This document shows, piece by piece, positions 1 to 62,269 of a DNA stretch of 64,000 bases (the first letter of the stretch is position 1; every line of letters begins with the position of its first letter). The notes below the pieces were generated by a model, which had not been told where the DNA came from, did no database searches, and saw only the letters and a list, made by a program, of their open reading frames with translations. The DNA is from Fistulifera solaris (lineage: Eukaryota), in assembly GCA_030295235.1 (NCBI GenBank), contig AP026162.1, forward strand, positions 682,001 through 746,000. Reading direction: 5' to 3'. A program made the translations under genes and the position numbers.

Positions 1-865
1 GAACATTGATACAATCGCTTTTCTTCCAGACGGGAAATTTTTTGCTATACGAAGTCAAACTTTCTCTCAGGAGCTTATGACAGAACATTTTGTGATAGAG
101 ACGTTTGCTGCATTCCTTGAGGTGCTAGAGGATTGGGGTTTCACAAGAGTGAAAAAAGATGAACAGTGTCTCGGAATTGAAGTGTTTCATCATCCTTTGT
201 TTTTGAAAGGTGATTGGATAAGATGTTCTCAGATTGAACACGGAAAATCACCCACCGAAGTAAGAATCTCAGCGCTTCCTGAGAGAGCTCGCTTAGAGTT
301 TTCGTATTCACCCCCAGATGATAGCGAGAAATCCATCGGAGTTCACTCAAAACGAAGGCTTTCACCAGATTGTGCTTTAAACCGCGAAGCTGATACGTCT
401 CTATCATGGCAGAAGAAGAGGGCTGATAATGTCACGAGCTATCTTCAAAACAACAGTAGCCGGCGGAGCAGCATGACTTCAGTGGCATCCGATTTACATC
501 CTGATGCGTCCTTCACTGGCGTGAACCGCACTGACGATCTCAGAAGCATTGCGCTCTCGATAACAGCAGATAAACTTCGAATCAGATGCGGTGATTTACA
601 ATCAAAGACATCCCAGCCGTTGATAGACTGCGCAGTCCAATCTGCAACTCATAATATTGTCACTGACGCTATTGAAACATTGCTCAGGGACGAGACTCAT
701 ACACAAGAGACCTATCGGAGGCACGAACGCGAGCTTTCGAAGTCATCACTTCCAGGCTTAGTTCCGATCAGTAAACAGCTATTTTCGCATGTCAGTGAAG
801 ACTTAGGCAACCATAGCACGGACGTTAAACCATCAGAGGGAGAAGACGAGCGTCAAAGTGATTGA
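1..865 (+). CDS. HSF-type DNA-binding domain protein (5' end outside window)
   Basis: Frame is open from position 2: NIDTIAFLPDGKFFAI...FLEVLEDWGFTRV...EVFHHPLFLKGD, a divergent HSF DNA-binding domain pattern. Confidence 0.7.
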   Translation, partial: NIDTIAFLPDGKFFAIRSQTFSQELMTEHFVIETFAAFLEVLEDWGFTRVKKDEQCLGIEVFHHPLFLKGDWIRCSQIEHGKSPTEVRISALPERARLEFSYSPPDDSEKSIGVHSKRRLSPDCALNREADTSLSWQKKRADNVTSYLQNNSSRRSSMTSVASDLHPDASFTGVNRTDDLRSIALSITADKLRIRCGDLQSKTSQPLIDCAVQSATHNIVTDAIETLLRDETHTQETYRRHERELSKSSLPGLVPISKQLFSHVSEDLGNHSTDVKPSEGEDERQSD

Positions 866-15157: not shown

Positions 15158-16154
15158 TCAAACAGTTTCCGATTGAATGGACGAATGCAAGTGATTTCTT
15201 TCTGCTTCGTCGCTGTCTGACAGTGCAACCTTCACGTCGTCTTGAATGCCCCCGAATAAAGGATCAAAACCATTCGCTGAACTTGTAATCGACGGTGCTT
15301 TCTTTTGTGATGATAAGCCGTCTTTACTTGGTATCGCCTCTACACCTTTGAACATTCCCTGCTGCATTTGCATCATTTGCATATGCTGCATCTGCATTAG
15401 CTGCATTTGTTGCCACATGACTGGGTTATGCTGCATTGCCATCTGGGGACCCAGCATCGGCATTGCAGGATATCCAAAGCTTCCCATTGTACCTTGCATG
15501 TTCGCGAAAGGCTGCGGATGTGATGGTGCAGCTTGTACTTTGGTTCCAGAGTTGTTCGACATTTGTGTACAAAGTTCGGGGTTGTCCCGAGAAAACAATT
15601 TATGATAATACGAACCCGTTTCTGGACCGCGTGAGATTCGGCTGAAGCCCCAGCGATTCAATTTTCTTGTAAAAGAGGCAAATCGACTCCCTCTAAAGTA
15701 CAATGGAAGGATTTCCGACTCAAAAATTTTCTTTTTATGAATCATGAATGCATTTCCGTGATCGCACCAAGAAACGACATGTGAATGAGACCCATCCGAC
15801 AGTATATCCATGAGCTGGTTTGTGGCAAAGTATCAGGAAGACGAGTGTTTGTAAAAGATGTAAGGCTTTCGATCTGGTAAACGTTATAAAACGGTGTGGT
15901 GAAAGAGTCGGAGGTCTTTCGATCAGCTACGAGCTATGACCGTCGGAAGAAGTGGCTGTCACAAATGATTCTCGGAGAGGAAATTGTACAAACAATGACA
16001 ATGTAAATGCATCACTTACTTTCTGCGGAAAAGTGCGCGTAGAGTCATCCGCGAAACCTTTCGTTTCGTTATATTGATCCATCGTCATTGCAAAAGCAGC
16101 ATATTCATTCTCTCCTCTGCCGACAAACCCAACGGAACTTGCTTCGTCTGCCAT
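15158..16154 (-). CDS. Heat shock transcription factor
   Basis: TFPQK|LMDIL...VVSWCDHGNAFMI...FASFTRKLNRWGF...YYHKLFSR. Intron 15815-16019. Q/M-rich region. Confidence 0.92.
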
Positions 16155-41305: not shown

Positions 41306-44300
41306 GTTGCTGCAAGTACTGAAACTTCCGGGTACCCCAGTACAATTGTTCATTCCCGACTTCGACGAGAATTCCTTTTGTGCTCTCCCCCACTAATTCG
41401 ACCCTCGCGGTTTCATTGGTGAAGCCCATTTTGATATTCATTTTGATTTCAACAAAGTGATGAGTCGGTCAAACGCCGATCCCCATGGTTCGTCCAGGGG
41501 ATTCAGCGAGCCCTGACCCGCCCGGCTTGCAGGAGGCAACGTCCGGTACTCGGATCCCTAATCAAGGTACAGCAGCTGCGCTTTGTACTTAGGACGCGCT
41601 CAGTCTTGAGACACCCCTACTGTGTCGCTATAGGTACAAACACCCCCACTGTTGACATCACAGAAGTCTCGTCGCCCAGGCCTCGACCTCCGGGCCCTTG
41701 TTGCAATTGTTCCAAAACCGCAACATGCAAAAACCGACGCTGCTTTTGTCGTAAAAACAATCTTCGATGCACCAATTGTTTTTGTCGTGCCTGCACCAAC
41801 AAAAACACAGCTAATCCTTCCGATGATTCCACACCCAATCCACCGGATAGCTTTCCACCCCACATCGAACAAATTCCAGAAGCCCACCGCACTGCACTTA
41901 CCTTTCAGGGTGCGAGCAGAGGCTTCTGAATCATCCAATCACCAATTCACGACGCCAAATTCGTCACCGGACGCAGTGAATATCGCCTCCTACTCCGGAT
42001 GTCGATGACTCCCTATTTGTTCCTCCTGTTCGCGCCTCGAACAGCACAAGCACTCACAACCGATGGCCCCTCCTTTCGACGACCTCGTGCAAGAAATTGC
42101 CAACGATCTCACAAGAGTCCTTGGCCCTCCGCTTCTCACACAGGTTGATGGTGCTGATCCGATTGGTTTTATTGCCAGTGAAGCCCATTTGCGTTTGAAA
42201 CAAGTCTTTGGAGACTGGATTCACGACAACGATGGGACTCAACTCCATGGCAGTCTTTCAGCTGAGGAGGATTACGAGTGGCAAAAACGCTATGAGGATC
42301 TGTGTTCTTCTTCCCCTAATTATTACATGTTGCCCCTCGGTGGAGACACGGGTATTAAATTCCTCAATCAACTTGTTGCGGAATTTCAGGCAGTCCGGCT
42401 CCATCGCACCGCTTAATTTTGAACGTGTGATTGTCTTCGTGCAGGTGGTGCTTGCAAGCAAGCGTGATATCTCCGACGCCAAAGCAATCCGACCGTATTA
42501 ATGATCGTCTTGAGCTCTGGGCTGGGAAGCAGTATCAATTGCTAGTTGATGATACTCTTCTCGAGCGTAAATTCGAATTCGTGGACCGGTCGTTCGCTCA
42601 GATCTGGAAATTGCAGAGCGTTTCAGAAACACAGTTGAGTTTGGACGAATCAAAAGGCGATGCAACAGCTAATGGAATCAACGCAAGAAGGTTCTTCTGT
42701 TTTAGACCCAGAATCAATTGATTTGAAATCAGGCAAACCTGTCCGTGATGTTCTTGACGCAAAGCATCCTCCACAACGAGTTCCCGACTTGGAAAACGAT
42801 GAAGACCATTCTGCGTTCGAAGTACGATACTACTCCCGATGCGGTCCCTCTCAGAATGACAGCACAAAGTATTGAAGAGGCTGCTCGTAATATCAATGGT
42901 AGTGGAGGTCCTAGCGGCATTGATGCCAAAATGCTTCAGAACTGGCTTATCTGCTTTGGTGATGCATCATTTGCACTCACGTCAAGAGTTAGCTGCCTGG
43001 ACCGAGTGGTTAACAAATGGCGACCCACCGTACGCATCAATTCGAGCTCTAATGCATTGCAGACTCGTAGCATTAGACAAGAAACCTGGTGTTCGCCCTA
43101 TTGCAATTGGTGATATCTTCCGACGCCTAATAGATCAAGCGGTTTTGAAAGCAACTGGTTATCACAGCACGGCTGAGGCTTCCAACTTCAACCTTTCTGT
43201 TGGTTTGCAAGCTGGTATTGAGGGGGCACTTCATGCCGTTCAAAAACGCTTACTTGATTCTTCGATTATTTAGGCTTCTGATAGTTCAAGCTTGATACTT
43301 GACTTCTGATTCTTCGTCGGTACTTTCACTACCGTACCCGGGTGTTGGCTATGTTCCGCCCTCTTTATCTCCTTCGGATTCTGACAACAGTTCCACGACA
43401 TCAATGCTAGATTCTCAGACCGACCACGAGGGCGGTGGTATTGGTGGATGCCCGTAACGCTTTCAACGAACTCAATCGCCTGGTTATGCTGTGGACTGTG
43501 CGGCATCTGTATCCAGCAGGGGCCCGACTTATCTTTCATTCTTATCGGCACACGCCTATTCTTTTTTCTCTGAAGAGGTGAGGGAAAACCGTGCATCAAA
43601 CTTCACAGCCGCTGAGGGAATTACGCAAGGAGATCCCATGAGTATGATTATATACGGTCTTACCCTGGTTCCCTTGGCAAAACGCATTCGTGAAGCCACT
43701 AAGGATGTTGTGCAGCCATGGTATGCGGATGACGTAGCTTTAGCGGGTCCTGCAAGTCAAATAGATATCGCGATGAAGCTGCTTATTAAGTATGGCCCTG
43801 ACCGTGGTTACTATCCCGAACCCGAGAAAAGCCAGCTTGTTTGCATTGACCCTGAGTCCCGTTTGGCTTGTAGTCGGTTGCTAGCTGAATACAAGTTTTC
43901 GTGTGTGCCGTCGCCAGATACCTTGGAGGATTTATTGGGGATCGGAGCTATCTTGGGGAGTGGCTGTGTCCCAAAATTGAAGCGTGGATATCCAAAGTTG
44001 AAGCGCTTTCCATGGTTGCTCGGACTGAACCACAAGCAGCGTATGCGGCCTTCACAATCTCGCTACAAAATGAATGGGCTTACATTCAGCGCGTAGTTCC
44101 AGGCTGTGAAGAGTTTCTCAAACCGCTGGAGGTTGCCTTACGCACTTCTTTACTTCCAGCGATTCTTGGGGAGGCGGAGTCCGACTGTCGGTGAACTTCG
44201 AGAAATTACCACTCTAGCAACTAAGGCAGCTGGAATCGCCATTTCACGACCCTAGTGTGACAGCTCCGGTTAACTATGAAATTTCGGTAATGGTGACTAA

Positions 44301-47800: not shown

Positions 47801-49743
47801 TTACTGAGCCCATGTTGCTTGAAATGAATCCCATGTCTCGTCGGGCGGGTCCACAATCCTAATTTCATCAGCATTTTCCAGTTCCACGTGATAATTGACC
47901 AAGGGAGCTAGCTTCTTTACCGATTTCTGCGTCATCAGTAGAGGAAGAAGGTCAGCAACAGAACCCGCTTCGAAATTCGGCGCTGGGCATAGCACTTACC
48001 GGTACTTCATCGATGGCAGCAAGTAAAAGCTCTTCGGGTACAATCCGACCTGTAGAATGCGCTCTTTTCTATGGTGTTGATGTTAGTTGCGGCAACTTAA
48101 CACTGAAGGCAAGCTCAGGTGTTGACTTACAGAAGCCCTAGCGAGGACCATCTCTCTGGGAGCCGATACATGTATGATTGCAAGTCTAACGTGAGGATAC
48201 GTGCCTCTCAGTTTTTCAAAGTATTCCTCATACCAAGGAGCATCCCTCAGGCTTCCATCAACCAACACGTTCTTTCCTTCTTGTAGCGCAGCCAGGGTCA
48301 GAATTTCGCTTATAAGTCCGGCTTCTTTCCTGAGTTTTGAAGAAACATCAGAACGCATTGCGACGTTGAATTGTATCATGTACAGCGGGGTCCACGCCTT
48401 ACCTAGTAAGAGTGCCAGCATCTTCGGGACTTTGTTGGATGTATAGATGAAACTCCGGTAGATACCGTCGCAACTCGTCCGGATCCACACGGACGAAAGC
48501 AAGAAGGGGGAACAGACCTCTGTTGACCAAGTGTCGCATGGTGTAACTTTTCCCCGATCCCATTGCACCAGCGGTAAAAACGACCCACGGCTCTGTCGGT
48601 GTTGTGCATTTGTCGCCATGCTTGTCCGTAAAATATGTTGCGTCAAGAAACTCGCTAATGATTGCGTCTTGGAGCATCTGCCTTTCGAAAGTATAGTTTC
48701 GATGATAGGAATAATCCAATGTCGCCCGAATGTGGGCGAAGCGGCCATAAAACAATCGGTCATCCGATTGATGATTTTCTTCGGAGGAACGAAGAACGGA
48801 AAATAGTCGGTGCCGCTTGGGACAAACAGTGTTGTCTCCCGACGCAAGACGTTGAATATTCGGCACTTCGACAGACCGCTGCTGCCCAAAGATTGTAGCA
48901 AATTGTTGTCTAATCTCTTCGGTCGGCTGTAACCCGTCAGAATCTTTAATTATAGAGCAATAGTAATCCACGTCGGACTTTGATTGCTCGACAAAATCCG
49001 TCGGCCCTTTTCGTACATCCGATGTTCGTTCCAAGTCGGTCAAAGTGCCATCTGCGACTATTGCTAAACTTGGTATAACATGAATAAGTCCAACTTTCAA
49101 GGAGAGCGAAGACGTCCGTAGGCAATGAATCTTCTGTTTGCATGATGAGATGTCAATGCGTCTGGTCATGAAAAGTACATTTCGTCCCGATTGCAAGGCT
49201 GCTAGCATCAGAGTCTCTGCAATGTAGTCGCATTCCTTTTCAGTCCGAGTGTCCGCCAAGTCGGGAGACTCTCGGAGAAAAAAAGGCATATTCCGGAAGA
49301 TATTGTCGAATCTCATCCGTGTCGATAGTGACCATCGATGGAAACGGAAGGTGGTTCTTTCTTAACAGCTCTGCCATCGAGGACATACTCTCTGTTCCAG
49401 GAGCACAAACAACTAGAATAGCCCAAGGTTCGCATTGTAATTCAGCTGGAGAGGCGCTGTTCAGGATATCATCCATGATCGAGTCATGGAGCCACTGTCG
49501 CTGTTTCTGATAATGCGAATGATACGAGTAGTCCATCTTCTCCCGAATATGACCATAGGCACCGTAAAAACGTTTCTCATCATCTCGACTCCGAAAATGC
49601 TCTTCGGTCGAATCTTCCAAGCCAAACGGTTTGAATGAACACGAAGATGACAACGCGGGCATTCGTTCGGATGGCGCCGTCTCGTCGGGGGAACTGTTGA
49701 TTGCTGTAATGTCGTCAGCATTTATTACATGTTCAGGTAACAT
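47801..49743 (-). CDS. Zeta-toxin-like P-loop kinase with tandem duplicated domain
   Basis: Second domain FTAGAMGSGKS, VDPDELRRYLPE, KEAGLISE, VLVDGSL. First domain is homologous but its P-loop is degenerate. Two introns and a frameshift near 49240. Confidence 0.8.
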
Positions 49744-52033
49744 GCTGGAAATAGAAATACGGAGTTCATAGAATTGAAAATGCAAAAATCATGATGTCAA
49801 TGCTCCGGGGTAATTTTTATTCTTGTCTCGTAAACCTTACAGCCTCCCGTACATTTATACCACTTCTACGTCTTTCTACGTCTCGCTATACCAATTTGGT
49901 ATGTTTTTCCAGAAATACTCGAAGTAGTTTCTGCGCTAATCTACTATTTTCCGGATAGTTCGGTGAGTATTTTTGGAAAAATATACCGCCAGGGTATAGC
50001 GGATGAAGAAATACCAGTGCCGTTTCGAAAAGTACCACTATGGCGTGAAATGTAGGAAATTCGTGGGAATTCTTCAATCACTAGTAATACGTCTGCCGCA
50101 TTTTCCTTGACGAGCACAAAAATGAGCCATCACCCATCACGAAGAAAGAAAACCATGAGAAAACCGACAAGTCGTCGCGGCAAGAACATCTACGCTAACA
50201 TAAAGTCGCCCTTCGTCGCGAAAGATCCCACTGCTTCGCACTATCGTGATTGTGATGCATCTATACGATCTGCAGTGAAGTGGCTTTCGTAGATTGTCGT
50301 AAGAATTCCGATCGCCGAACCTTTTGCTGAAAAAGATATTGAATGAGAAAAGGCTCCCCAAAAAGTTTTTGCTTCAGAGATATCACTTCCTAAAAATACG
50401 CAGCAAAGCAAAATGTTGTTAGTACAATGCGTTTAAGCAGTGTAAAACAGTTTCTACGTGACATGAGGCGTACTTTGATCGATCATCAGAACGAACGAAA
50501 CAATTAAAACAGATCTCACGCAGGCTCGTGGAACTTCAGAACCACAATTTTGTGTGCCTTCCAGTATTTAAACTCTTCTCGAGAAATCGTACGAAGGTGG
50601 CAGTCGGGCACTTTTCCTTACTCCAGACAGAGCTAAATGGTATTCTCGATAAAATCTTTTCAAAAGGAGGTGGTAACGTGTTTAGCATTCACTCACAGCG
50701 CTCTAGATGATCTTCTTTAGAATTTTTATTCTAGCTTAAGCATCTAACGACTGCCTTGTTTCAAGAATTTTCGGTGATGTAGTCGCTTTTCGTCATGACA
50801 TTTTATAAAAATTGGAGGTATAATTAAAGCGCACAAACGAGTTGAACGGTGGCCTTCAGACTTTAGATGTCGACATAGGCTTTGCCTTATCTTATGGAGT
50901 TACGATGCTATCGGCTTTTAGGGTCTAGCCTTTAAGAGAGCAGCCTAGACTAATGTTCATTCATCCTTATTATTTCTAGTGTGTAGGCATCGTTAGGGTT
51001 TCGGTTAAAAATCGTTTCGGTTGCAGTACAACAAAGTGCGTAGAAAATGCGTAGGAAATCCTATACCAACCGGCACTGCTTCTGGTATATTTTTCCTGCT
51101 CATTATACAGCCTCCCGTACATTTATACCACTTCTACGTCTTTCTACGTCTCGCTATACCAATTTGGTATGTTTTTCCAGAAATACTCGAAGTAGTTTCT
51201 GCGCTAATCTACTATTTTCCGGATAGTTCGGTATAGCGGATGAAGAAATACCAGTGCCGTTTCGAAAAGTACCACTATGGCGTGAAATGTAGGAAATTCG
51301 TGGGAATTCTTCAATCACTAGTAATACGTCTGCCGCATTTTCCTTGACGAGCACAAAAATGAGCCATCACCCATCACGAAGAAAGAAAACCATGAGAAAA
51401 CCGACAAGTCGTCGCGGCAAGAACATCTACGCTAACATAAAGTCGTCCTTCGTCGCGAAAGATCCCACTGCTTCGCACTATCGTGATTGTGATGCATCTA
51501 TACGATCTGCAGTGAAGTGGCTTTCGTGAGATTGTCGTAAGAATTCTGATCGCCGAACCTTTTGCTGAAAAAGATATTGAATGAGAAAAGGCTCCCCAAA
51601 AAGTTTTTGCTTCAGAGATATCACTTCCTAAAAATATCGCAGCAAAGCAAAATGTTGTTAGTACAATGCGTTTAAGCAGTGTAAAACAGTTTCTACGTGA
51701 CATGAAGTACTTTGATCGATCATCAGAACGAGCGAAACAATTAAAACAGATCTCGCGAGGCTCGTGGAACTTCAGAACCACAATTTTGTGTGCCTTCCAG
51801 TATTTAAACTCTTCTCGAGAAATCGTACGAAGGTGGCAGTCGGGCACTTTTCCTTACTCCAGACAGAGCTAAATGGTATTCTCGATAAAATCTTTTCAAA
51901 AGGAGGTGGTAACGTGTTTAGCATTCACTCACAGCTCTAGATGATCTTCTTTAGAATTTTTATTCTAGCTTAAGCATCTAACGACTGCCTTGTTTCAAGA
52001 ATTTTCGGTGATGTAGTCGCTTTTCGTCATGAC

Positions 52034-52789
52034 TGACAGAAATTCCGAGCGCACAGATAGCTCACGGAATTCGGAATGCGGAATAATCTCACGCAAAGAC
52101 GACAATCAACCAACTCAACACTCTTTGATGAGATGATCAACTGACAAACGAAAGCACTGATATCGCAAACACTCTTTGATTGCAATGATCAGCAAAGACA
52201 ACCACACAGTGCGCTTGTTGTTACTTACTCACTGTCTGCCTGCCTGGACTCAAAGGATGTAGATCGACTCGCAAGGTTTGTGACCTTGAGAATTTCACCA
52301 CAAAAAGAAGACTCAGTAAACTCGATAAATATGGGTTGATTTCTAATTCATTTTTATTTTGTGAGACCTATTCTAATAGAAAATGATTGCACACCTTTCT
52401 CCAATCTTCAGGAACTTGTGCTGAGGTGGCAAAGAAAACAAGTACTGGATTCCTGTAGAAAATGAACATAGCTCCGTAGGCTTCCGTAGGTTGGCTACGA
52501 CACGTAAGAAATGTACTGAAGGTCTACGTGACAGTCAGTCGTGGCAAGAGAAGAAACATGTCCACGTCTGCAAAATTGTCGACGTTGCACTCTCAACGGT
52601 ATCCAAACCTTGTAACTGCAACTTCAAATAACTCCCAATGGTATCCAAGTGACTCTATCTTCAAATAGACAGTCGAAGTCTAAATAGCAATACCGATGCG
52701 CCGTCTCTGTGTAGTATAAGTAGTAGACTACACAAATACTATGGAAAATCAGTCACTAACATGACTCAAACTTGCTAAGAAAATTGTCA
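52034..52789 (-). repeat. 3' LTR
   Basis: Nearly identical to 56623-57380 and adjacent to the polypurine tract. Confidence 0.95.
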
Positions 52790-52940
52790 CTCCCCGTCTT
52801 CTCGAAGGCACGGCGGCTGCAATAACTGACTCGCATTCTCGTTCGAAGGTCTTCCATTTTCTTCCTAAATCCTAATCACTAACACATGCATTTCTCTCTA
52901 AACAAATATCTCTCTAACCCAAAGTAGTACGTAGTACTCT

Positions 52941-53290
52941 TCAGTTCTTCAGTTCTGCGGTGTCTCCAGTCCAGAAAAGTATCGCCTTCAAACGATCCCA
53001 TATCTGCGAATAACCCCAATGTTTGCTGAGAATATCAGCTGGGTTCATCTCCCCGGGAATATGCAAGAATGCAACCATTCCTGACGCAATAGCCTCGCGT
53101 ACAGGTCTCTTGTGTAGCTTTAAGTGTACCATGGTAGCACTGTTGACGACAGACTCATTATCCCCAAACATGTAGGCCTTCTCGCGAATCGGTACCCCTA
53201 AATATCGCAGTGTATTGCGGAGATCGATGATCTGCTCAACGCACGTTCGCTGCAATAAATTCGGAACCATAAGTAACAGTCTGTACTTGA
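52941..53290 (-). pseudogene. Copia RNase H remnant
   Basis: TYGSEFIAA / CVEQIIDLRNTLRYLGVPI...GDNESVV...NPADILSKHW. Confidence 0.88.
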
Positions 53291-53759
53291 GGACTGACAG
53301 CGTCGGGAGGACTGATATCAGCAATAGCATCAGGATCCACTTCAAGGGCGGATGTACAAGATTGTACAACTGGAGTGGACAAATGCGAGCACTCCCCGTC
53401 AGTCAGAGCGGCGCGCAAAGTAGGGTCATCCGAGGGTGTAGGGAGGGACCTGGGAGCTGAAAAATTACTTGCTGAGGATCCGAAGTAAGTATTGCCCAGG
53501 ACAGGGTGGGGCAAACATGCTCAGAAATATTGACACTGTAACCCATGGCTTCCGTGGACTCAGAAGGAAAACCATAACTGCCACATATATAAGGTACTCT
53601 CTGAATATAGTAGACTTGGAGAAAGATACTGACATCATTGTTGATCCAGCCAAAATAAAGACGTAACCGCAAGAAATCGGGAAGTACATTTGGGCACAGT
53701 GCGTGAAGTGACCAAAAGAACAGGAGGAGGTTTGGCAGGAGGTAATTCAGTAGGAACAA

Positions 53760-55622
53760 TATCGGCGACAGTACCATTTTCGAGGCCGGTCATTTGATGG
53801 TTTTCAATGCCTTGAATGCCAATGTGACAATGCCAAAAAACCTTGTCAATGAACGTGACGTCATAACCGGCGACTCTTCCCTTTTCACCACGATCGACCA
53901 AAGAAGCAAGTGAGGATGACGTATGTCCAATTGAGACACAATACGTGATAAGCACGTTTGCACTCAGTGTCCGATTGGCACTAGTCAGCGGGAGCTTGCC
54001 GAAAGAATACGTCGAATATCGCGAGGGGTCAAGGTGCAAGTTGTTGGATTGTGCAGCATTGACCAAAAGTGTTGAATCGGCTTCTTGGGAAGGATCAATG
54101 TCTTGTGGTGCATCGTGGAACTCATCACTAGGGACCGTAGGTTCAGGATCAGGATCGGGCTCGGGAGGAAGAGACTCATGGAAGTGCACACTCGCGACTC
54201 GGCGAATGGGGACCATGATGACTGCCAGAACCAGTATAGTTGGGGTTAGACGACAGGCCCAAAATAATGGCTTTATCCTTATCAGAGATAGTGTCCCAAA
54301 TCGTACGTGCGTTGTCGCTCAGTTGCATCCAGCGTTCACGAGCCATACAGCGGTCCAGTAGTGCGTGTAGTCGAAGAAATACCGGGTGGACGATTGCGTG
54401 CAGGACGACGGGCAGCAGCGTTGATGTACAGCTCAGACACAGAAGAATCGATGTCGTACTCGTAACCAGCGTCGTCATCGTCATACGGGTCATCCTGAAC
54501 AACGTCATGGTACAGAACCTTACGGGCGTGGTCTCGCAGAAAACTGTGCATCGTGAACGGGAACTTTGGGGCGAGGGAGAAGAGTACAGTACTGCTCGAA
54601 GGTAGCGTCTTTTCCCGTTTTCGCGGTGTCAATGTCAATGGTACTCTTGACTTGTCGTAGATCAGAAATGCCGTTAACCGCGTTTTCAAGTAATGCACGT
54701 TTCTGTTTATCGGAAATGACTTCGCCGGAAATCTGTTCATAGCGTCGTACTTGATCTTGCCAGTTCAGGATGAACGCATTGGTAGTACCGTTCCATGTAC
54801 CGTCACCAAGTTTGGCCGAAGTGATGCAATAGAGTATGCTGGAAGATTCCATTTGCGCGTTAGTAGACTGTAGGTGATGGCGCTTCAACTCAGCATAAAC
54901 GCGTTGTGCATCGTAGGTAGACTTCGTACTTCGCGAACAATGGCCTTGCCTTGGTCAGTAAGGACAGTAGCTTCAAGGACTGCGTACATGTACTTCTGCT
55001 TTTCGTCGAAGAGTTCCTTCTCATCGTCAGTAGTAGGCACGTACTGATCATCAAGTACGTCACTGACACTTTGGTATGAAGCTTGAGTCACGAATGACCG
55101 ATGCCAAGAGTCATTGTAACTTTCATTCTTGAGTGTAGGAAAGAGTGAAAGATCGCTTGATGCCACGGCAGAAGGCATCTGCAGGGGACATAGGGGTTTT
55201 CGGACTGCCGGTATACACAGGAGGACGTGGTGTATGGGCAGGAGAGTATCCGCTCGTGAACCAATAATGTCTCCCCGTACACAGAAGGAATCGAACTCTT
55301 CAGCAGTAATCGGCGTCCAATCATCATTGATAGGGTTACCCTGATGATAACGGTCGGCAATGTACTTGAAAAACATCTTGAGCATGTCCCTATCAGCTTG
55401 CGGTACTGGAACTGTGACTGGAGTACTATCATCGGCACCGTCGGGTTTTTCGTCGTAGGTAAGGGAGTCGATAACAGCATAGTCGATACAGAGCAGTTTG
55501 GGAAGCGTAGTGTAGCCACGAGAAACAAGGGACAGTTTAAGGCCCGGAGAATTGGCACAGTCCAAAAGTACATCGAGGACGTGATCGAAGGCAATACGTC
55601 CTTGGGATCGTGGGAGAACCAT
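53760..55622 (-). pseudogene. Copia gag-protease remnants
   Basis: FPTLKNESYNDSWHRSF, LFDEKQKYMYAVL, WNGTTNAFILNWQDQVRRYE, SLVDRG. Frameshifted. Confidence 0.75.
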
Positions 55623-56603
55623 CTTAGAACTTGAAAGCTTGACCTTGAACCTTGAGTGTACTACTACTTAAAAGGGTCAGAGATGGCGGTGAACTGTATG
55701 ACACCGGAAAATCCAATCTCCTATCCAGGAGTAGCGACCCTGGCGTCGAGGGAAGACCTCCCGAACTTGAGCCGTAATCAGCGACAGTGAGGACCAAGTA
55801 CCCTTCCCTTTGCACTCGGTGTACTCCTCAACAGCCCCCTTATACCTTCAGCGGGTTGGTTCAGGCAAGGTAGGTGATCGCCTGCCAAGCACGTGTCCCG
55901 GTCGCCTTACAGCAGAGTGTTGGAATGCGGATGTACCAAGGAACAAAGGCCCCAGTAGATTAGATACCGCCCAACCAGAATCCGAACAACAGAAAGATAA
56001 GAGAACCTGCAATAGGAACCTTACTCCCTGTCTTCAAGCCCACTGTTAATTCTTAGCACTATGTGTACCCAGTACTGCGACCTCACAGAACGGAAAATCC
56101 AAATTACTAAGCCCCAAGCCGCCCATAGGCGCCCCTACACAGCGGGCCAATTGGAACGATCGCGCAAGCGCTGAGCCGGTATACAGGTACTCCCGAGCAG
56201 TAGCTTGGCTACTCGTTGAGCGGGTACAGTTTTTTTTTTTTAGTGCTTTGGTGAACAACAGAAGATTGATAGGACTTGTCGGACGCACCACTCCTGTAAA
56301 GCGGGTCACTGCTTGGACTGGAACCTCAAGGATTCCTAGCCGAACGGACAGGTAGTCGGCTGACAGACAGACAAACAGACGAGCGGACAGCCGGGCAGAC
56401 GGTAGGCTGACAGACAGGTCGGTAGGCAGACGGCAGACAGACAGCGAGCGACTCACGAGCGAGACAAGACTCACAAGTCGAACAACGACGGACGTCAAGC
56501 AGACACTGGCGACTCGCGAGTGAAACAAGACTCACAAGTCAAACAACCTCACGAGCTTCACAACAGCCCACGTGAAACAGCCAACGAGCCAAACACAATC
56601 CAG

Positions 56604-56622
56604 AGGCTTGCGACTGTTAATC
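56604..56622 (-). promoter_or_regulatory. Primer-binding site complementary to the tRNA-Asn anticodon arm
   Basis: Plus strand AGGCTTGCGACTGTTAATC abuts the 5' LTR and contains an anticodon loop CT-GTT-AA. No TGG-type PBS is present. Confidence 0.7.
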
Positions 56623-57380
56623 TGACAGAAATTCCGAGCGCACAGATAGCTCACGGAATTCGAATGCGGAATAATCTCACGCGCAAAGGCGACAATCAAC
56701 CAACTCAACACTCTTTGATGAGATGATCAACTGTCAAACGAAAGCACTGATATCGCAAACACTCTTTGATTGCAATGATCAGCAAAGACAACCACACAGT
56801 GCGCTTGTTGTTACTTACTCACTGTCTGCCTGCCTGGACTCCAAAGGATGTAGATCGACTCGCAAGGTTTGTGACCTTGAGAATTTCACCACAAAAAGAA
56901 GACTCAGTAAACTCGATAAATATGGGTTGATTTCTAATTCATTTTTATTTTGTGAGACCTATTCTAATAGAAAATGATTGCACACCTTTCTCCAATCTTC
57001 AGGAACTTGTGCTGAGGTGGCAAAGAAAACAAGTACTGGATTCCTGTAGAAAATGAACATAGCTCCGTAGGCTTCCGTAGGTTGGCTACGACACGTAAGA
57101 AATGTACTGAAGGTCTACGTGACAGTCAGTCGTGGCAAGAGAAGAAACATGTCCACGTCTGCAAAATTGTCGACGTTGCACTCTCAACGGTATCCAAACC
57201 TTGTAACTGCAACTTCAAATAACTCCCAATGGTATCCAAGTGACTCTATCTTCAAATAGACAGTCGAAGTCTAAATAGCAATACCGATGCGCCGTCTCTG
57301 TGTAGTATAAGTAGTAGACTACACAAATACTATGGAAAATCAGTCACTAACATGACTCAAACTTGCTAAGAAAATTGTCA
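56623..57380 (-). repeat. 5' LTR
   Basis: TGACAG...TTGTCA, nearly identical to 52034-52789. Confidence 0.95.
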
Positions 57381-57922
57381 ATGACATTTTATAAAAATTG
57401 GAGGTATAATTAAAGCGCACAAACGAGTTGAACGGTGGCCTTCAGACTTTAGATGTCGACATAGGCTTTGCCTTATCTTATGGAGTTACGATGCTATCGG
57501 CTTTTAGGGTCTAGCCTTTAAGAGACGACGCCTAGACTAATGTTCATTCATCCTTATTATTTCTAGTGTGTAGGCATCGTTAGGGTTTCGGTTAAAAATC
57601 GTTTCGGTTGCAGTACAACAAAGTGCGTAGAAAATGCGTAGGAAATCCTATACCAACCGGCACTGCTTCTGGTATATTTTTCCTGCTCATTATACAGTAC
57701 GTCCTTTGTCGAGGCATTCTCAAGTACAGTAGGTTATGGGCGATTTTTTAGACAAAAAAATCGACGCTTTTGAAAGAAAGAATCAAGAGGAAATAAAAAT
57801 ATATATTTCCTCTTCAAGAAGGGGAGAACACATCATGGAAGAAAATAAAGAGTATTCTATAAAGTTACTGTTTCTTCTCGCGCTTTCAATCAAACTCAGT
57901 GCTCTGGTACAATGGAGCTCTC

Positions 57923-58240
57923 TCAAAGCTCGAGCAGCGGGAGAAGAAGATTCGTTGGGATAGGTGACGGTAGATCATGACGAAACTCTCGAGTGGGACG
58001 GGGCGCTGGGGGGCACACGAGGACTTGCTTCTTATGTTAAATGGGAGTGCATGGTTCAAATTCTTTTCGCTCGCGTTTTCGGTAAGGGCGATGAACTTCG
58101 AGCCTCACTTTCGATTCATCGATAGGAATATCCGATTGGTTGCTTTTATTTAGTGGGACCAAGACATTGTAAAACTGAGATGATTCTTGAGGTCGCAAAC
58201 GCACGGGAGAATTGCGCGCGATGGCGGTTGCCTTGCACAT
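57923..58240 (-). pseudogene. Paralogue of the small protein at 61439, with a nonsense codon
   Basis: PCTPI*HKKQVLVCPPAPRPTREFRHDLPSPIPTNLLLPLLEL. TAA at 58037-58039 where the paralogue has CAA. Confidence 0.55.
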
Positions 58241-61200
58241 GATTGTATGACGACCGTGAAAAATTCTTCTCTTAAACATTTCCGGATCGTGTTGATGATG
58301 ATAGTAGATATTATGAACCAACTGTTGGTCGTGGATAGGACGCTTTTGACAAGCGACAGAGTTGTTCGCATTTTTCTGTTCGAGTTTGTGTTTTGTGACT
58401 TCAAAAGGATTCGAATGCCGGCATGCACGCGAAGCCGCCAAAATCGTACTTTAAATACCACAGTTTGTTAGACAGATGAGGACAGCCGACGGGCAATATT
58501 TCTTTAAAAAGAACAAGAAAATGAAAATTGAGCGTCATTGATCTCGTTGGTGCAGTCAGTGTGTAGCATTGCGGTTTTTAAGCCAGTTACTGGGCGCTGT
58601 CAGAAGCCGAAAGGCCGCCCTCGAAAGTCTGCAATAACCATTGCTGCCAACGCGGCCACGTCCTGCGGAAAAAGCTCGCTCTCTCAAGAGCGTTAGTTAA
58701 GATGATTGCGTGATGGGCGTCACGATAAACAAATCTGCTTGTTCAAACGATATCGAAGGAAAGGATGATGATGAAGATTGTCAATGGGGCCGTTGTGTCT
58801 GCAGTTTTGAAATGCATGCTGACGTCGACTATTGACGAAATAGTAGTAGAATTACGAGTCACGGTCTCGATTTTGGTCACGAGTCTGAAAGAGGGTGCAG
58901 TCTGTCCGTGCGTCCTGAGGGACATTTTCGATACACGCTCCGACATGTCACATTCGAGAAGTACCGCTCCGAGAACAAGGCTACTTAATAAACGTACACA
59001 TCCCTGACTTGTGCTTTCATGAGCTAGTGTGGCAAACCGTGAAATTTTGCTCCAAAATGCAAGGGGGTTGCCCATGATTTTCGCCCATTCTTTTGCACCG
59101 GCCCCTTCAATATCGATCGCAACAATCAATTTTGGGACGTAAATTCTATCATCTCATTATCATTTCTTTGACGACTAGTATCACTCTTGCTCATAAAAAC
59201 GATATGACGACGAAAGTGACGCGAAGAGCGTTCATTTACCGCTTTAATATTGCATAATTTGACACTCTTACTTTCAATTCGAGTCGACCGAGGCCTGCGA
59301 AAGTGATCAAGATTGCATAAAACAAAGTCGATATGCACCCCCAATCAACCTCCTCTGATTCTTGACTAATACACGAGTGATTTCCGTCATCGACGTCCAA
59401 GTTATTCTTTGATAGATAAATATCGTGAACGAAGAACTCGTCATTGTCGTTTGTTCGAAACATGAAGGTGTCAAACCGCTCCCCGGAATTCACTGCTAAA
59501 CGACGCAGACATCCTCTATTTCATTATTTCGATCTCTCATTGGTCCAGCCGTCACGGATTCTTGTTCACATTGGCGTCATCAGGGTGTTCTGGAGCGGCG
59601 AGGGCCTTCCCTTTCGCCAGCCTTTGTGACGAGTCCGCTTTTTTATATGATTTACACCCACGCGCTGGAAATACATGGTGCCCGACGAAACATGATACAG
59701 ACAACCTCATTCAAATCCATTACCATACTACTATCGGACGTGTTGAGTGCCTACTGTCACCACATTTCGACAAATGTATCGGGGTATTCCACTGGTCAAA
59801 TTCAATACAGCTCCTCTCTTCGTGTTTTGGGAAGCCTACGTCCAATTTTTGACGTCGCAAAATGGTCTTTCATGGCTTCAATATAAGATCCATCTCAGTC
59901 CGAACATCTTTTGGTCCCATTGCGGGTCTCACCACTTTGACCAGTGCCCTTTCGGGATTTCTTGTCACGCCCGTGTTGCAACAAGTGTTGGCTTGTCGGG
60001 AGCACTCATGGGTACGGCGGTCACTCTCATCATCAGTTTGCAACTTTCGTCACTGGCTTATGATGTGGCAAGAAAATACGGCTTCGAACTGAAAGATACG
60101 ATCGATACATCGCAACTTAAAGCAAAGGCACTGTCCAGTACTCACGAGTCAGGCCATGGCGACAACACTAAATTAACAGCTTCGTGGCCGCCCTGAGGAA
60201 TGACATGCCGCATAACACGAAGCGTGCTGAATAGGTTGGTGTGTTCTTTTTCGCAATCAACTTACTCCCGATGGTCATACAGTTCGGTGCGTTTCTATCT
60301 TTGATTCAATCAACTGATGCACGTGATCTCTGGCAAGCCATGCTCGTTCTGATGTCCTCGTTCACTTAGTTCCAAGTAACGCAGAAAAAGCTCTCTCTAG
60401 CGATTGTCAGTGTGCTTTTCTTAGGATGAAAGTGACAAAATATTCGGTACGAAGGTTGTTGGATGAAATGCTATCTGTCTCGCTGGTTGTTGAAGTCGGA
60501 TTTCTAGGCAAGGAACTGGTCGGCGTCTTTGGCTACCGATCCGGGAAACAGTCGAACATGATTCCGCCCCCACACTCATTGAAACAATATTACGTCGCTC
60601 ACTTCATGGTTTGACACGCATCATGCGGGATCCATTTCCGTTGGACACAACTTTTAAATCTATCATGAATAATGACCAACGCGGTGCAGCTTCCCTGTAG
60701 AAACAATTCTTGGTCGCATCATTCCACCATTGCCCTTCCTTTCCTCAATGAAAGTGTTGACATTTCGAATACACCGTGATCATCCTCAACTTTCACATGT
60801 TACACACTCATAGATCTTTGGCCGGCAAGCAAAGCGACAAACGCACACTTGTAAGCGTGGCACGGCAGAGTAAGATTTATACGCTATTTCAATATCCACG
60901 GTAAAAATTGTTATCAACTTTCACTGATTAATGATTTCATAAATCGAAATGAAGCTTAATTCAACTATAACTTGCACTATCAGCATAGAGTGATGACGAC
61001 CAGCGAGAGCGGAGAGGGTGGGGGGAAATAACAGTTGGCATTTCGCCATAAGTACCAATTGAATTTGTTCACAAGACGCGACTCAATTGGACGAGTAATC
61101 ATCACCTGCAGAACAATGTGTCAATCTTTTAGTCTTGGATCGTCTCCGAAAAAGCACGTAGCTCTCTACGTAGACAAGTCGCAGTTAAAAAAGAAAAAAG

Positions 61201-61438
61201 ATGGCACGTGACATTTTGTTGCTCTCATGTCCATGCAAACATAGTCAGTTTGCAGAGTAGCTATTGACAGCACTCTTTCGTCATGCTCGAAAGAAGGTTG
61301 TACTCGATAACGATTACACAGTAAGAGAAGGCGAGAACACATTATGGAAGAAAATGAAGAGTTTTCTATAGTTACTGTTTCTTCTCGCGCCTTCAATTAC
61401 AGTAATCAAACTCAGTGCTCTGGTACAATGGAGCTCTC

Positions 61439-61756
61439 TCAAAGCTCGAGCAGCGGGAGAAGAAGATTCGTTGGGATAGGTGACGGTAGATCATGACAAA
61501 ATTCTCGTGTGGGACGAGGCGCTGGTGGGCAGATGAGGACGCGTTTTTTATTTTGAATGGGAGTACATGGTTCAAAGTCTTTGCGCTCGCGTTTTCGGTA
61601 AGGACGATGAACTTCAAGCGTCACCTTCGTCTCCTCGACAGGAATTTCCAAATGATTGCTTTTATTTGGTGGGACCGAGACTTTGTGCAGCTGGGATAAT
61701 TCACGTGGTCGCAAACGCACGGGAGAGTTGCGCTCAATGTTGGTTGCCTTGCACAT
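61439..61756 (-). CDS. Small unknown protein (about 105 aa) with CTP and CPPAPRP motifs
   Basis: MCKATNIERNSPVRLRP...PCTPIQNKKRVLICPPAPRP...LLLPLLEL. Reading frame is conserved with the copy at about 58 kb. Confidence 0.55.
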   Translation of the reverse strand: MCKATNIERNSPVRLRPRELSQLHKVSVPPNKSNHLEIPVEETKVTLEVHRPYRKRERKDFEPCTPIQNKKRVLICPPAPRPTREFCHDLPSPIPTNLLLPLLEL

Positions 61757-62269
61757 GATTGTATGACGAACGTAGAAGACTGTCAAACACTTCCGGATCG
61801 GTAACAGACGGGAAGACGGAGTTAATTTTGTGTTAGTGATGATATTATGGACGAAATGTTGGCCGTGGAAAGGACGCTTTTTCGACGAGCGACAGGATTG
61901 TTCGCATTTTTCTGTTCGAGTTCGTGTTTTGTGACCAGAAAAAGGATTCGGATGCCGGCATGCGCGCAGAGCCGCCAAAATCGTACTCTAAAACTCTAAC
62001 TCTACCACATTTTGTTGGTCAAATGAGAACAGCCGGCGGGCGATTTATTTAACGGCTTCGTTTCTAGTATCGTATAACGTGTAGTCACTGAGTAGCGGAC
62101 AGCGGACGCACCTTCCGTTGTAATTCAAAATATAAATCCGGGTTTTTTACTTCATGTTCGATGGCCGCCTTTCATCTTCGTCAACATTCATAGATATTCA
62201 TTCTTCGCCACACTTGAGGTCGACATAAATGAATAAGATTAATCTCTATTGCTGTTAATAGTTCCCAGT

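Follow-up and report, generated by a model that had tools for sequence, protein, structure and literature searches.

Half-tRNA primers in described Copia elements

That Drosophila copia and Ty5 start reverse transcription from one half of a tRNA, in their case the initiator tRNA-Met (tRNAiMet), is established (PMC5371799, PMC10886601), as an earlier note on the DNA analyzed here had stated. According to the sections of these two papers that deal with them, both elements have a primer-binding site (PBS) flush with the 5' LTR, which matches the anticodon arm and not the CCA end of the tRNA and is served by a cleaved 5' fragment, and both belong to the copia superfamily with its 5-bp target-site duplications (TSDs). 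The element described in this study lies in a stretch of 64,000 nt (hereafter the window) and resembles them in each of these respects, the cleaved fragment being in its case a proposed one. On the other hand, copia and Ty5 use tRNAiMet, whereas the site of the window element corresponds to tRNA-Asn(GUU), lies in a probable diatom host and offers a 19-nt pairing that reaches into the D stem. Moreover, priming has been demonstrated experimentally for copia and Ty5, while for the window element we infer it.

Half-tRNA priming with tRNAs other than tRNAiMet is already in print for tRNA-Ile, tRNA-Arg, tRNA-Lys and tRNA-Tyr, and once, in fungi, for tRNA-Asn-GTT. Copia elements of rust fungi and the Helenus TRIMs carry PBSs matching anticodon loops, from which the tRNAs for Tyr, Ile and Asp as well as tRNAiMet were deduced as primers (Kojima 2024, PMC10886601); in the available text of that paper, tRNA-Asn-GTT is named once and Asp appears in another place. 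Like the window element, these are Copia elements and non-autonomous derivatives sharing the PBS of an autonomous Copia, with 5-bp TSDs, but their hosts are fungi and their PBSs are short (PMC10886601). Data on diatoms or stramenopiles have 0 occurrences in the same portion of text. Among plant Copia, the lineage Bianca is assigned one half of tRNA-Ile, and Osser, Bryco and Gymco-II one half of tRNA-Met, as judged from their PBSs (Neumann 2019, PMC6317226). There, too, entire lineages keep to one type of half-tRNA primer. The tRNAs and hosts of that survey differ from those considered here, and in its accessible part tRNA-Asn figures only as a full-length primer bound by its 3' end, in 2% of the elements. 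Other half-tRNA primers have been published for tRNA-Arg(UCU) (PMC4139406) and tRNA-Lys (PMC5445492), and as far as the available texts go, the PBSs of these Copia-group elements likewise match an internal region of a non-iMet tRNA, although tRNAs and hosts again differ.

The copia-like CoDi elements of diatoms (Maumus 2009, PMC2806351) probably belong to the same broad group as the window element, and an excerpt of PMC5445492 lists CoDi as the diatom copia of 'branch 1'. Neither 'primer binding' nor 'tRNA' nor 'polypurine' occurs in the main text of PMC2806351, and diatom PBS data are absent from the excerpt of PMC5445492. The papers returned by a full-text search on half-tRNA-Asn PBSs of retrotransposons do not describe such a primer, and a 14-mer of our site was absent as text from the literature searched.

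Anatomy and descent of the window element

The element has the architecture of a Ty1/copia retrotransposon (Table 1). Its two direct LTRs have TG..CA termini with short inverted ends and are framed on either side by the 5-bp duplication ATGAC; a PBS stands beside the 5' LTR and a polypurine tract beside the 3' LTR. Its orientation is minus because GAGAAGACGGGGAG precedes the other LTR and because the coding remnants lie on the minus strand. The insertion is a recent one and the element is young. Its LTRs are 99.2% alike over 760 alignment columns, and both of its flanks carry on a ~1.24-kb repeat in register. This repeat is a unit in tandem (49838-52033 and 57381-57697, 98.5-100% identity) whose second copy holds the element and which resumes after the insertion. 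Between the PBS and the gag-like ORFs, the leader (56350-56560, minus strand) consists of low-complexity short repeats of the GACAGAC/ACGAGC type.

Table 1. Features of the LTR retrotransposon, in window coordinates
Feature	Position	Strand	Remark
LTR retrotransposon, whole	52034-57380	-	5347 bp
Target-site duplication ATGAC, right copy	57381-57385	.	5 bases identical to 52029-52033
Target-site duplication ATGAC, left copy	52029-52033	.	
5' LTR, 758 bp	56623-57380	-	sense strand TGACAA...CTGTCA
3' LTR, 756 bp	52034-52789	-	
Primer-binding site, 19 nt, complement of tRNA-Asn(GUU) 22-40	56604-56622	-	18/19, mismatch at position 26
Polypurine tract GAGAAGACGGGGAG	52790-52803	-	directly before the 3' LTR
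Gag-like region, at least 3 broken reading frames	54520-55667	-	ORFs, weak colinear blastp matches
Putative remnant of pol, residues ~1-100	53734-53994	-	tblastn, weak evidence
Remnant of pol C-terminus (RNase H tail), with frameshift and short deletion	52944-53475	-	tblastn, tblastx

The interior of the element is largely eroded. Its gag-like region gave weak but colinear blastp matches (E 1e-6 to 2e-4) to the ORFs that follow the PBS in L031 and L059, two metagenomic loci with the same site that are described below, and the 11 internal ORFs of the element, this region included, had 0 matches in Pfam. Eight full-length relatives of 1421-1609 aa were used as tblastn queries against the window. 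With seven of the eight, residues ~1-100 aligned at the presumed start of pol (27-36% identity, E 5e-5 to 5e-3). The relatives' residues ~1220-1600 aligned at the pol tail with E-values of 1e-27 to 1e-36, reaching 49-61% identity in the terminal 100-112 aa while the upstream part aligned weakly. This tail also matched L031, L011 and L059 in tblastx. What remains of pol thus amounts to roughly the first 100 and the last ~170-380 residues. Protease, integrase and reverse transcriptase are deleted, and the Ty1/copia succession of protease, integrase, RVT_2 reverse transcriptase and RNase H is absent from this copy. Since these three functions have been lost, the copy must have been mobilised in trans.

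Copia ancestry is shown by the relatives. A 348-aa piece of pol from L031 retrieved 1156 protein matches, with PF07727 (RVT_2) present in all of the best 120, and the consensus of 16 aligned relatives has an integrase-like part upstream of a YVDD-type reverse transcriptase. Pfam gave no match for the pieces of pol and gag from L031 and L059 themselves, nor for the tail ORFs of the window. Judged by these comparisons, the element is a non-autonomous deletion derivative of a copia lineage and not an autonomous member of it. The name Copia given to it in the earlier note therefore holds by descent, through the RVT_2 of its relatives and the pol tail, but not for an intact element, protease, integrase and reverse transcriptase being gone.

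Other repeats and ORFs were seen outside the element. Two direct repeats of ~640-740 bp (57817-58455 and 61326-61992), 81-83% alike and ~3.5 kb apart, may represent either a segmental duplication or an LTR element of greater age. Of two further ORFs (43458-44096 on the plus strand and 48399-49361 on the minus strand), one has a weak RVT_1 match (E 2e-5) below the Pfam cut-off and the other a P-loop domain of the Zeta_toxin family (E 3e-9).

The tRNA-Asn match, its recurrence and the host

On the minus strand the site reads GATTAACAGTCGCAAGCCT (AGGCTTGCGACTGTTAATC on the plus strand of window 56604-56622) and begins at the first base past the 5' LTR, with zero spacer, so that the letters, coordinates and strand first noted for it were right. 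With as many as 3 mismatches tolerated, the window contains no second copy of the 19-mer, and a match arose in 0 of 100 shuffles. Metagenome contigs were then scanned with the pattern AGGCNTGCGACTGTTAATC, in which tRNA position 26 is left open, and this yielded 73 matches at 71 loci. At 57 of these loci (59 matches), most of them yeast-like in appearance, the open position is G and tRNA flanks are present on both sides, all matches reading AGGCGTGCGACTGTTAATC; ARAGORN placed a tRNA-Asn(gtt) over 51 of the 59 matches (50 of the 57 loci), the other eight being cut by contig ends. The yeast-type tRNA-Asn string that the earlier note had quoted is thereby confirmed on metagenomic DNA in 59 of 59 matches.

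In every tRNA-type match, the complement of the window site shares 18 of its 19 letters with positions 22-40 of these tRNA-Asn genes, which come from other organisms, and its sole difference is a T for G at position 26. As had been suggested, this complement corresponds to the D-stem to anticodon-arm region of tRNA-Asn(GUU) and not to a tRNA 3' end. Specifically, it covers the 3' strand of the D stem, position 26, the 5' strand of the anticodon stem, the loop CTGTTAA and two bases of the 3' strand, and within the 19-mer A31-T39 and G30-C40 are able to pair as an anticodon stem. Complementarity ends at C40, inside that stem, and the adjoining base already belongs to the LTR. Hemivirus-type elements are arranged in this way, with a PBS that stands flush with the LTR and is complementary to an inner part of a tRNA up to a point in the anticodon stem or loop. 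The element falls outside Hemivirus in the strict sense, which is defined by initiator tRNA-Met, the anticodon of the site being GTT (Asn) and not CAT. By our own arithmetic, the chance that a random 19-mer differs by at most one letter from some internal tRNA 19-mer would be ~1e-6.

The exact T-version of the 19-mer was found at 13 metagenomic loci, with a tRNA at none of them. At ten of the 13, the 19-mer runs straight into T[GA]..., which is an LTR terminus read backwards, again without a spacer. These ten loci represent ~7 families (L001/L008/L049; L013/L031; L011; L015; L021; L028; L059). The remaining three T-version loci (L016, L036 and L050, from soil) all lie in a single shared context that is not that of an LTR; they were discounted as chance matches, as was L043, which carries a C-version. 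In blastn, only 21-34 nt around the site align between the window element and the ten loci, and their LTRs and leaders are therefore unrelated in sequence. Because the loci were retrieved by the PBS pattern, the identity of their 19-mers is given by construction, and it is the position of the site together with the unrelated flanks that constitutes independent evidence. Read in this way, the expectation that related elements keep the PBS was borne out by an identical site at the LTR border in ~7 other families, at loci found by the site itself.

Three of these families can be tied to the window element through their proteins. L031, L011 and L059 share the order pol tail, ...GGGGAG, LTR of ~380-520 bp, site and an ORF in the position of gag; their pol tails are 45-67% identical to that of the window, and the motif ...GGGGAG/T before the LTR is common to all four elements. 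By these comparisons, the three families fall into the same copia (RVT_2) lineage as the window element. L028 is linked to the lineage by a weak gag match, and L001/L008/L049, L015 and L021 may be of copia ancestry. The primer type is thus common to ten loci in ~7 families, three of them belonging to the pol lineage. Viral contigs contained no relatives when queried with either the pol piece of L031 or the alignment of relatives.

The host is probably a diatom. Hints in line with a diatom-like host are a LytB gene and many genes of the HSF type in the window; two genes with HSF-type DNA-binding domains lie within 16 kb of each other (2-865, plus strand, and 15158-15832, minus strand) and adjoin LeuRS, CBS, LytB and other host genes. 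ARAGORN and Rfam detected no tRNA genes in the 64-kb window. Among public sequencing runs, the best match was X1, which contains 0.56 of the element's words and is the sole run with half or more; it may be the sample behind the assembly of the window. No RNA run among those listed matched the element.

Reads of X1 and of three further runs (X2, X10 and X11) were compared with a tRNA-Asn gene from a marine metagenome contig (L066:314-389). The first 725 bp of this contig hold six tRNA genes (Gln, Lys, Asn, Leu, Leu, Arg), a cluster that is probably of giant-virus type, and its tRNA-Asn has D and anticodon arms identical to those of yeast tRNA-Asn. X1 gave one contig on L066 339-371, the anticodon-arm/T-stem core, with 30 of 33 positions identical, and a tRNA with nearly such an arm therefore exists in X1. 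The ends of this contig comprise the acceptor strands GGACTAT/ATGGTCC, a CCGCC closing the T arm and a T-run past the 3' end, and its 5' side shows a D arm ending in GGTAGA/GC. Since the 3' strand of the D stem is GAGC and not AGGC in this tRNA, positions 22-23 would not pair with the PBS. One of its three differences from L066 can be placed in the T stem on account of the CCGCC, up to three further mismatches are possible within 24-40, and the tRNA may be nuclear or organellar. Neither X1 nor X2 gave a contig with a yeast-type D arm, a gap that proves nothing.

From X10 came a contig of low depth that corresponds to L066 320-357 with four differences and has D and anticodon arms of the yeast type. 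It is tRNA-Asn-like through position 42 and then reads GAGTACGATAATCC... in place of the variable loop and T arm, and it may represent a pseudogene, an element derived from a tRNA or a tRNA-Asn gene that contains an intron. Searches with the end strings of the X1 contig gave 0 matches in genome contigs. Two matches in viral contigs were rejected as chance occurrences that are not tRNAs. Two others are phage-type tRNA-Lys(ttt) genes that have only the acceptor and the D arm in common with it, and they proved uninformative.

Candidate primers and the base at position 26

The explanation that we consider best, and probable, is that the 19-mer is the PBS of a non-autonomous copia derivative primed by a cut cytoplasmic tRNA-Asn(GUU). 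Directly 3' of U5, the RNA of the element would pair with 19 nt (22-40) of this tRNA. Because the pairing stops at C40, within the anticodon stem's 3' strand, the primer would have to be a 5' tRNA fragment cut between 40 and 41, and the reverse transcriptase of an autonomous relative would extend the new 3'-OH into the last base of the LTR. The host would accordingly possess a tRNA-Asn with such an arm, cleave it at 40/41 and supply the fragment as primer. The earlier note had proposed precisely a half-tRNA mechanism with a different tRNA; the end of the site at position 40, within the anticodon stem, speaks for it, and the cleaved primer is the part that we infer.

A puzzling feature of the site is position 26, which is T in all eight LTR families (the window and seven metagenomic ones) and G in 59 of 59 tRNA-type matches from the metagenomes. 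Nor did the exact 19-mer turn up as a tRNA in the other collections: viral contigs gave 0 matches, and the single match among genome contigs of prokaryotes lay in a bacterial MAG, had no tRNA or LTR around it and was discarded as chance. A simple explanation would be that diatom tRNA-Asn has a plain U26 and was left unsampled by the scan. With ten element loci, only ~1-2 diatom tRNA-Asn loci would be expected, and finding none is therefore weak evidence.

A more tentative reading, and one that we hold to be doubtful, is that the invariant T26 is the genomic imprint of a tRNA modification. A G26 behind a D stem with G10-C25 and C11-G24 is the usual site of m2,2G, and the sampled tRNA-Asn matches have G26 behind just such a stem. 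This modification impairs normal pairing and causes misincorporation by reverse transcriptase, as stated in the available portion of PMC4697793. Two routes would lead from m2,2G26 to the observed base. On the one hand, the elements could have evolved an A opposite a base that is unable to pair with C. On the other hand, reverse transcriptase could have misread the modified primer, with the misincorporation fixed afterwards. If this were true, PBSs would record the modification state of the half-tRNA that primes them, and pairing or copying would extend through position 26 up to position 22.

The constant T26 has also to be weighed in favor of a primer other than the standard cytoplasmic tRNA-Asn, that is, an RNA that carries the exact 19-mer with U26. 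Candidates would be a tRNA encoded by a virus, a transcript resembling a tRNA, or a tRNA-Asn isodecoder that is minor or contains an intron and has a D arm of the yeast type. The sole Asn-like tRNA seen in X1, with its GAGC D stem, points in this direction, as do the X10 contig, in which yeast-type D and anticodon arms run into unrelated sequence, and the probable giant-virus tRNA cluster of L066, which carries such an arm. However, no gene with T26 was found in any of the collections, and a plain U26 in diatom tRNA-Asn explains the same facts more simply, so that we regard another primer RNA as unlikely.

It is less likely still that the 19-mer serves mainly as a structural cis element, forming a hairpin with downstream sequence, and that its likeness to tRNA-Asn is secondary. 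The PBS and the 50 nt downstream of it were folded for the window, L008, L011, L031, L015, L021, L028 and L059. With RNAfold, part of the site pairs with a segment 5-35 nt downstream in eight of eight families, and duplex energies compared with dinucleotide shuffles gave a Fisher-combined p = 0.008; taken singly, however, only one of the eight families reached p<0.05 against its shuffles, and L015 shows nothing. Fungal GalEa copia are described in the available text of PMC5445492 as having a hairpin instead of a PBS. Against this precedent, it is common for the PBS region of a retroelement to be folded as well as to serve for priming, and a hairpin leaves unexplained why the likeness to a tRNA, at 18/19 letters, stops precisely at the border of the LTR and within the anticodon stem. 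The predicted fold-back may thus be a possible accessory structure. The downstream segment that pairs with the PBS resembles a strand of the tRNA (e.g., ..GAGCTTGCA..).

Self-priming of the Tf1 type, in which the 5' end of the element RNA folds back on the site, is very improbable, as the PBS is not complementary to the element's own transcript start in the LTR (to the 25 nt past the LTR, no complement of at least 8 nt occurs in the 758-bp LTR and none of at least 9 nt in the element), and an identical site behind unrelated LTRs cannot be explained in this way. We give equally little credence to ordinary priming by the 3' CCA of a full-length tRNA at a TGG 21 nt past the LTR, with the 19-mer incidental, because although the window does read CTGGATTGTGTTTGG after the 19-mer, no T-arm-like complement follows the TGG, and a TGG stands at a comparable place in 0 of the 7 other families, all of which keep the 19-mer flush with the LTR.

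Priming by a cut tRNA-Asn(GUU), which remains the probable reading, would introduce no mechanism of a new kind. That copia priming is linked to the cleavage of a tRNA has been known since Drosophila copia, and other tRNAs have been reported; the only surprise is the T/G difference, which is constant at position 26. The reading would bring an asparagine tRNA, along with a host that is probably a diatom, into the set of copia lineages that are started from a cut tRNA, with the site kept intact even in a gutted, non-autonomous copy. For the biology of tRNA fragments in such algae, it predicts a 5' tRNA-Asn fragment that would end at C40.
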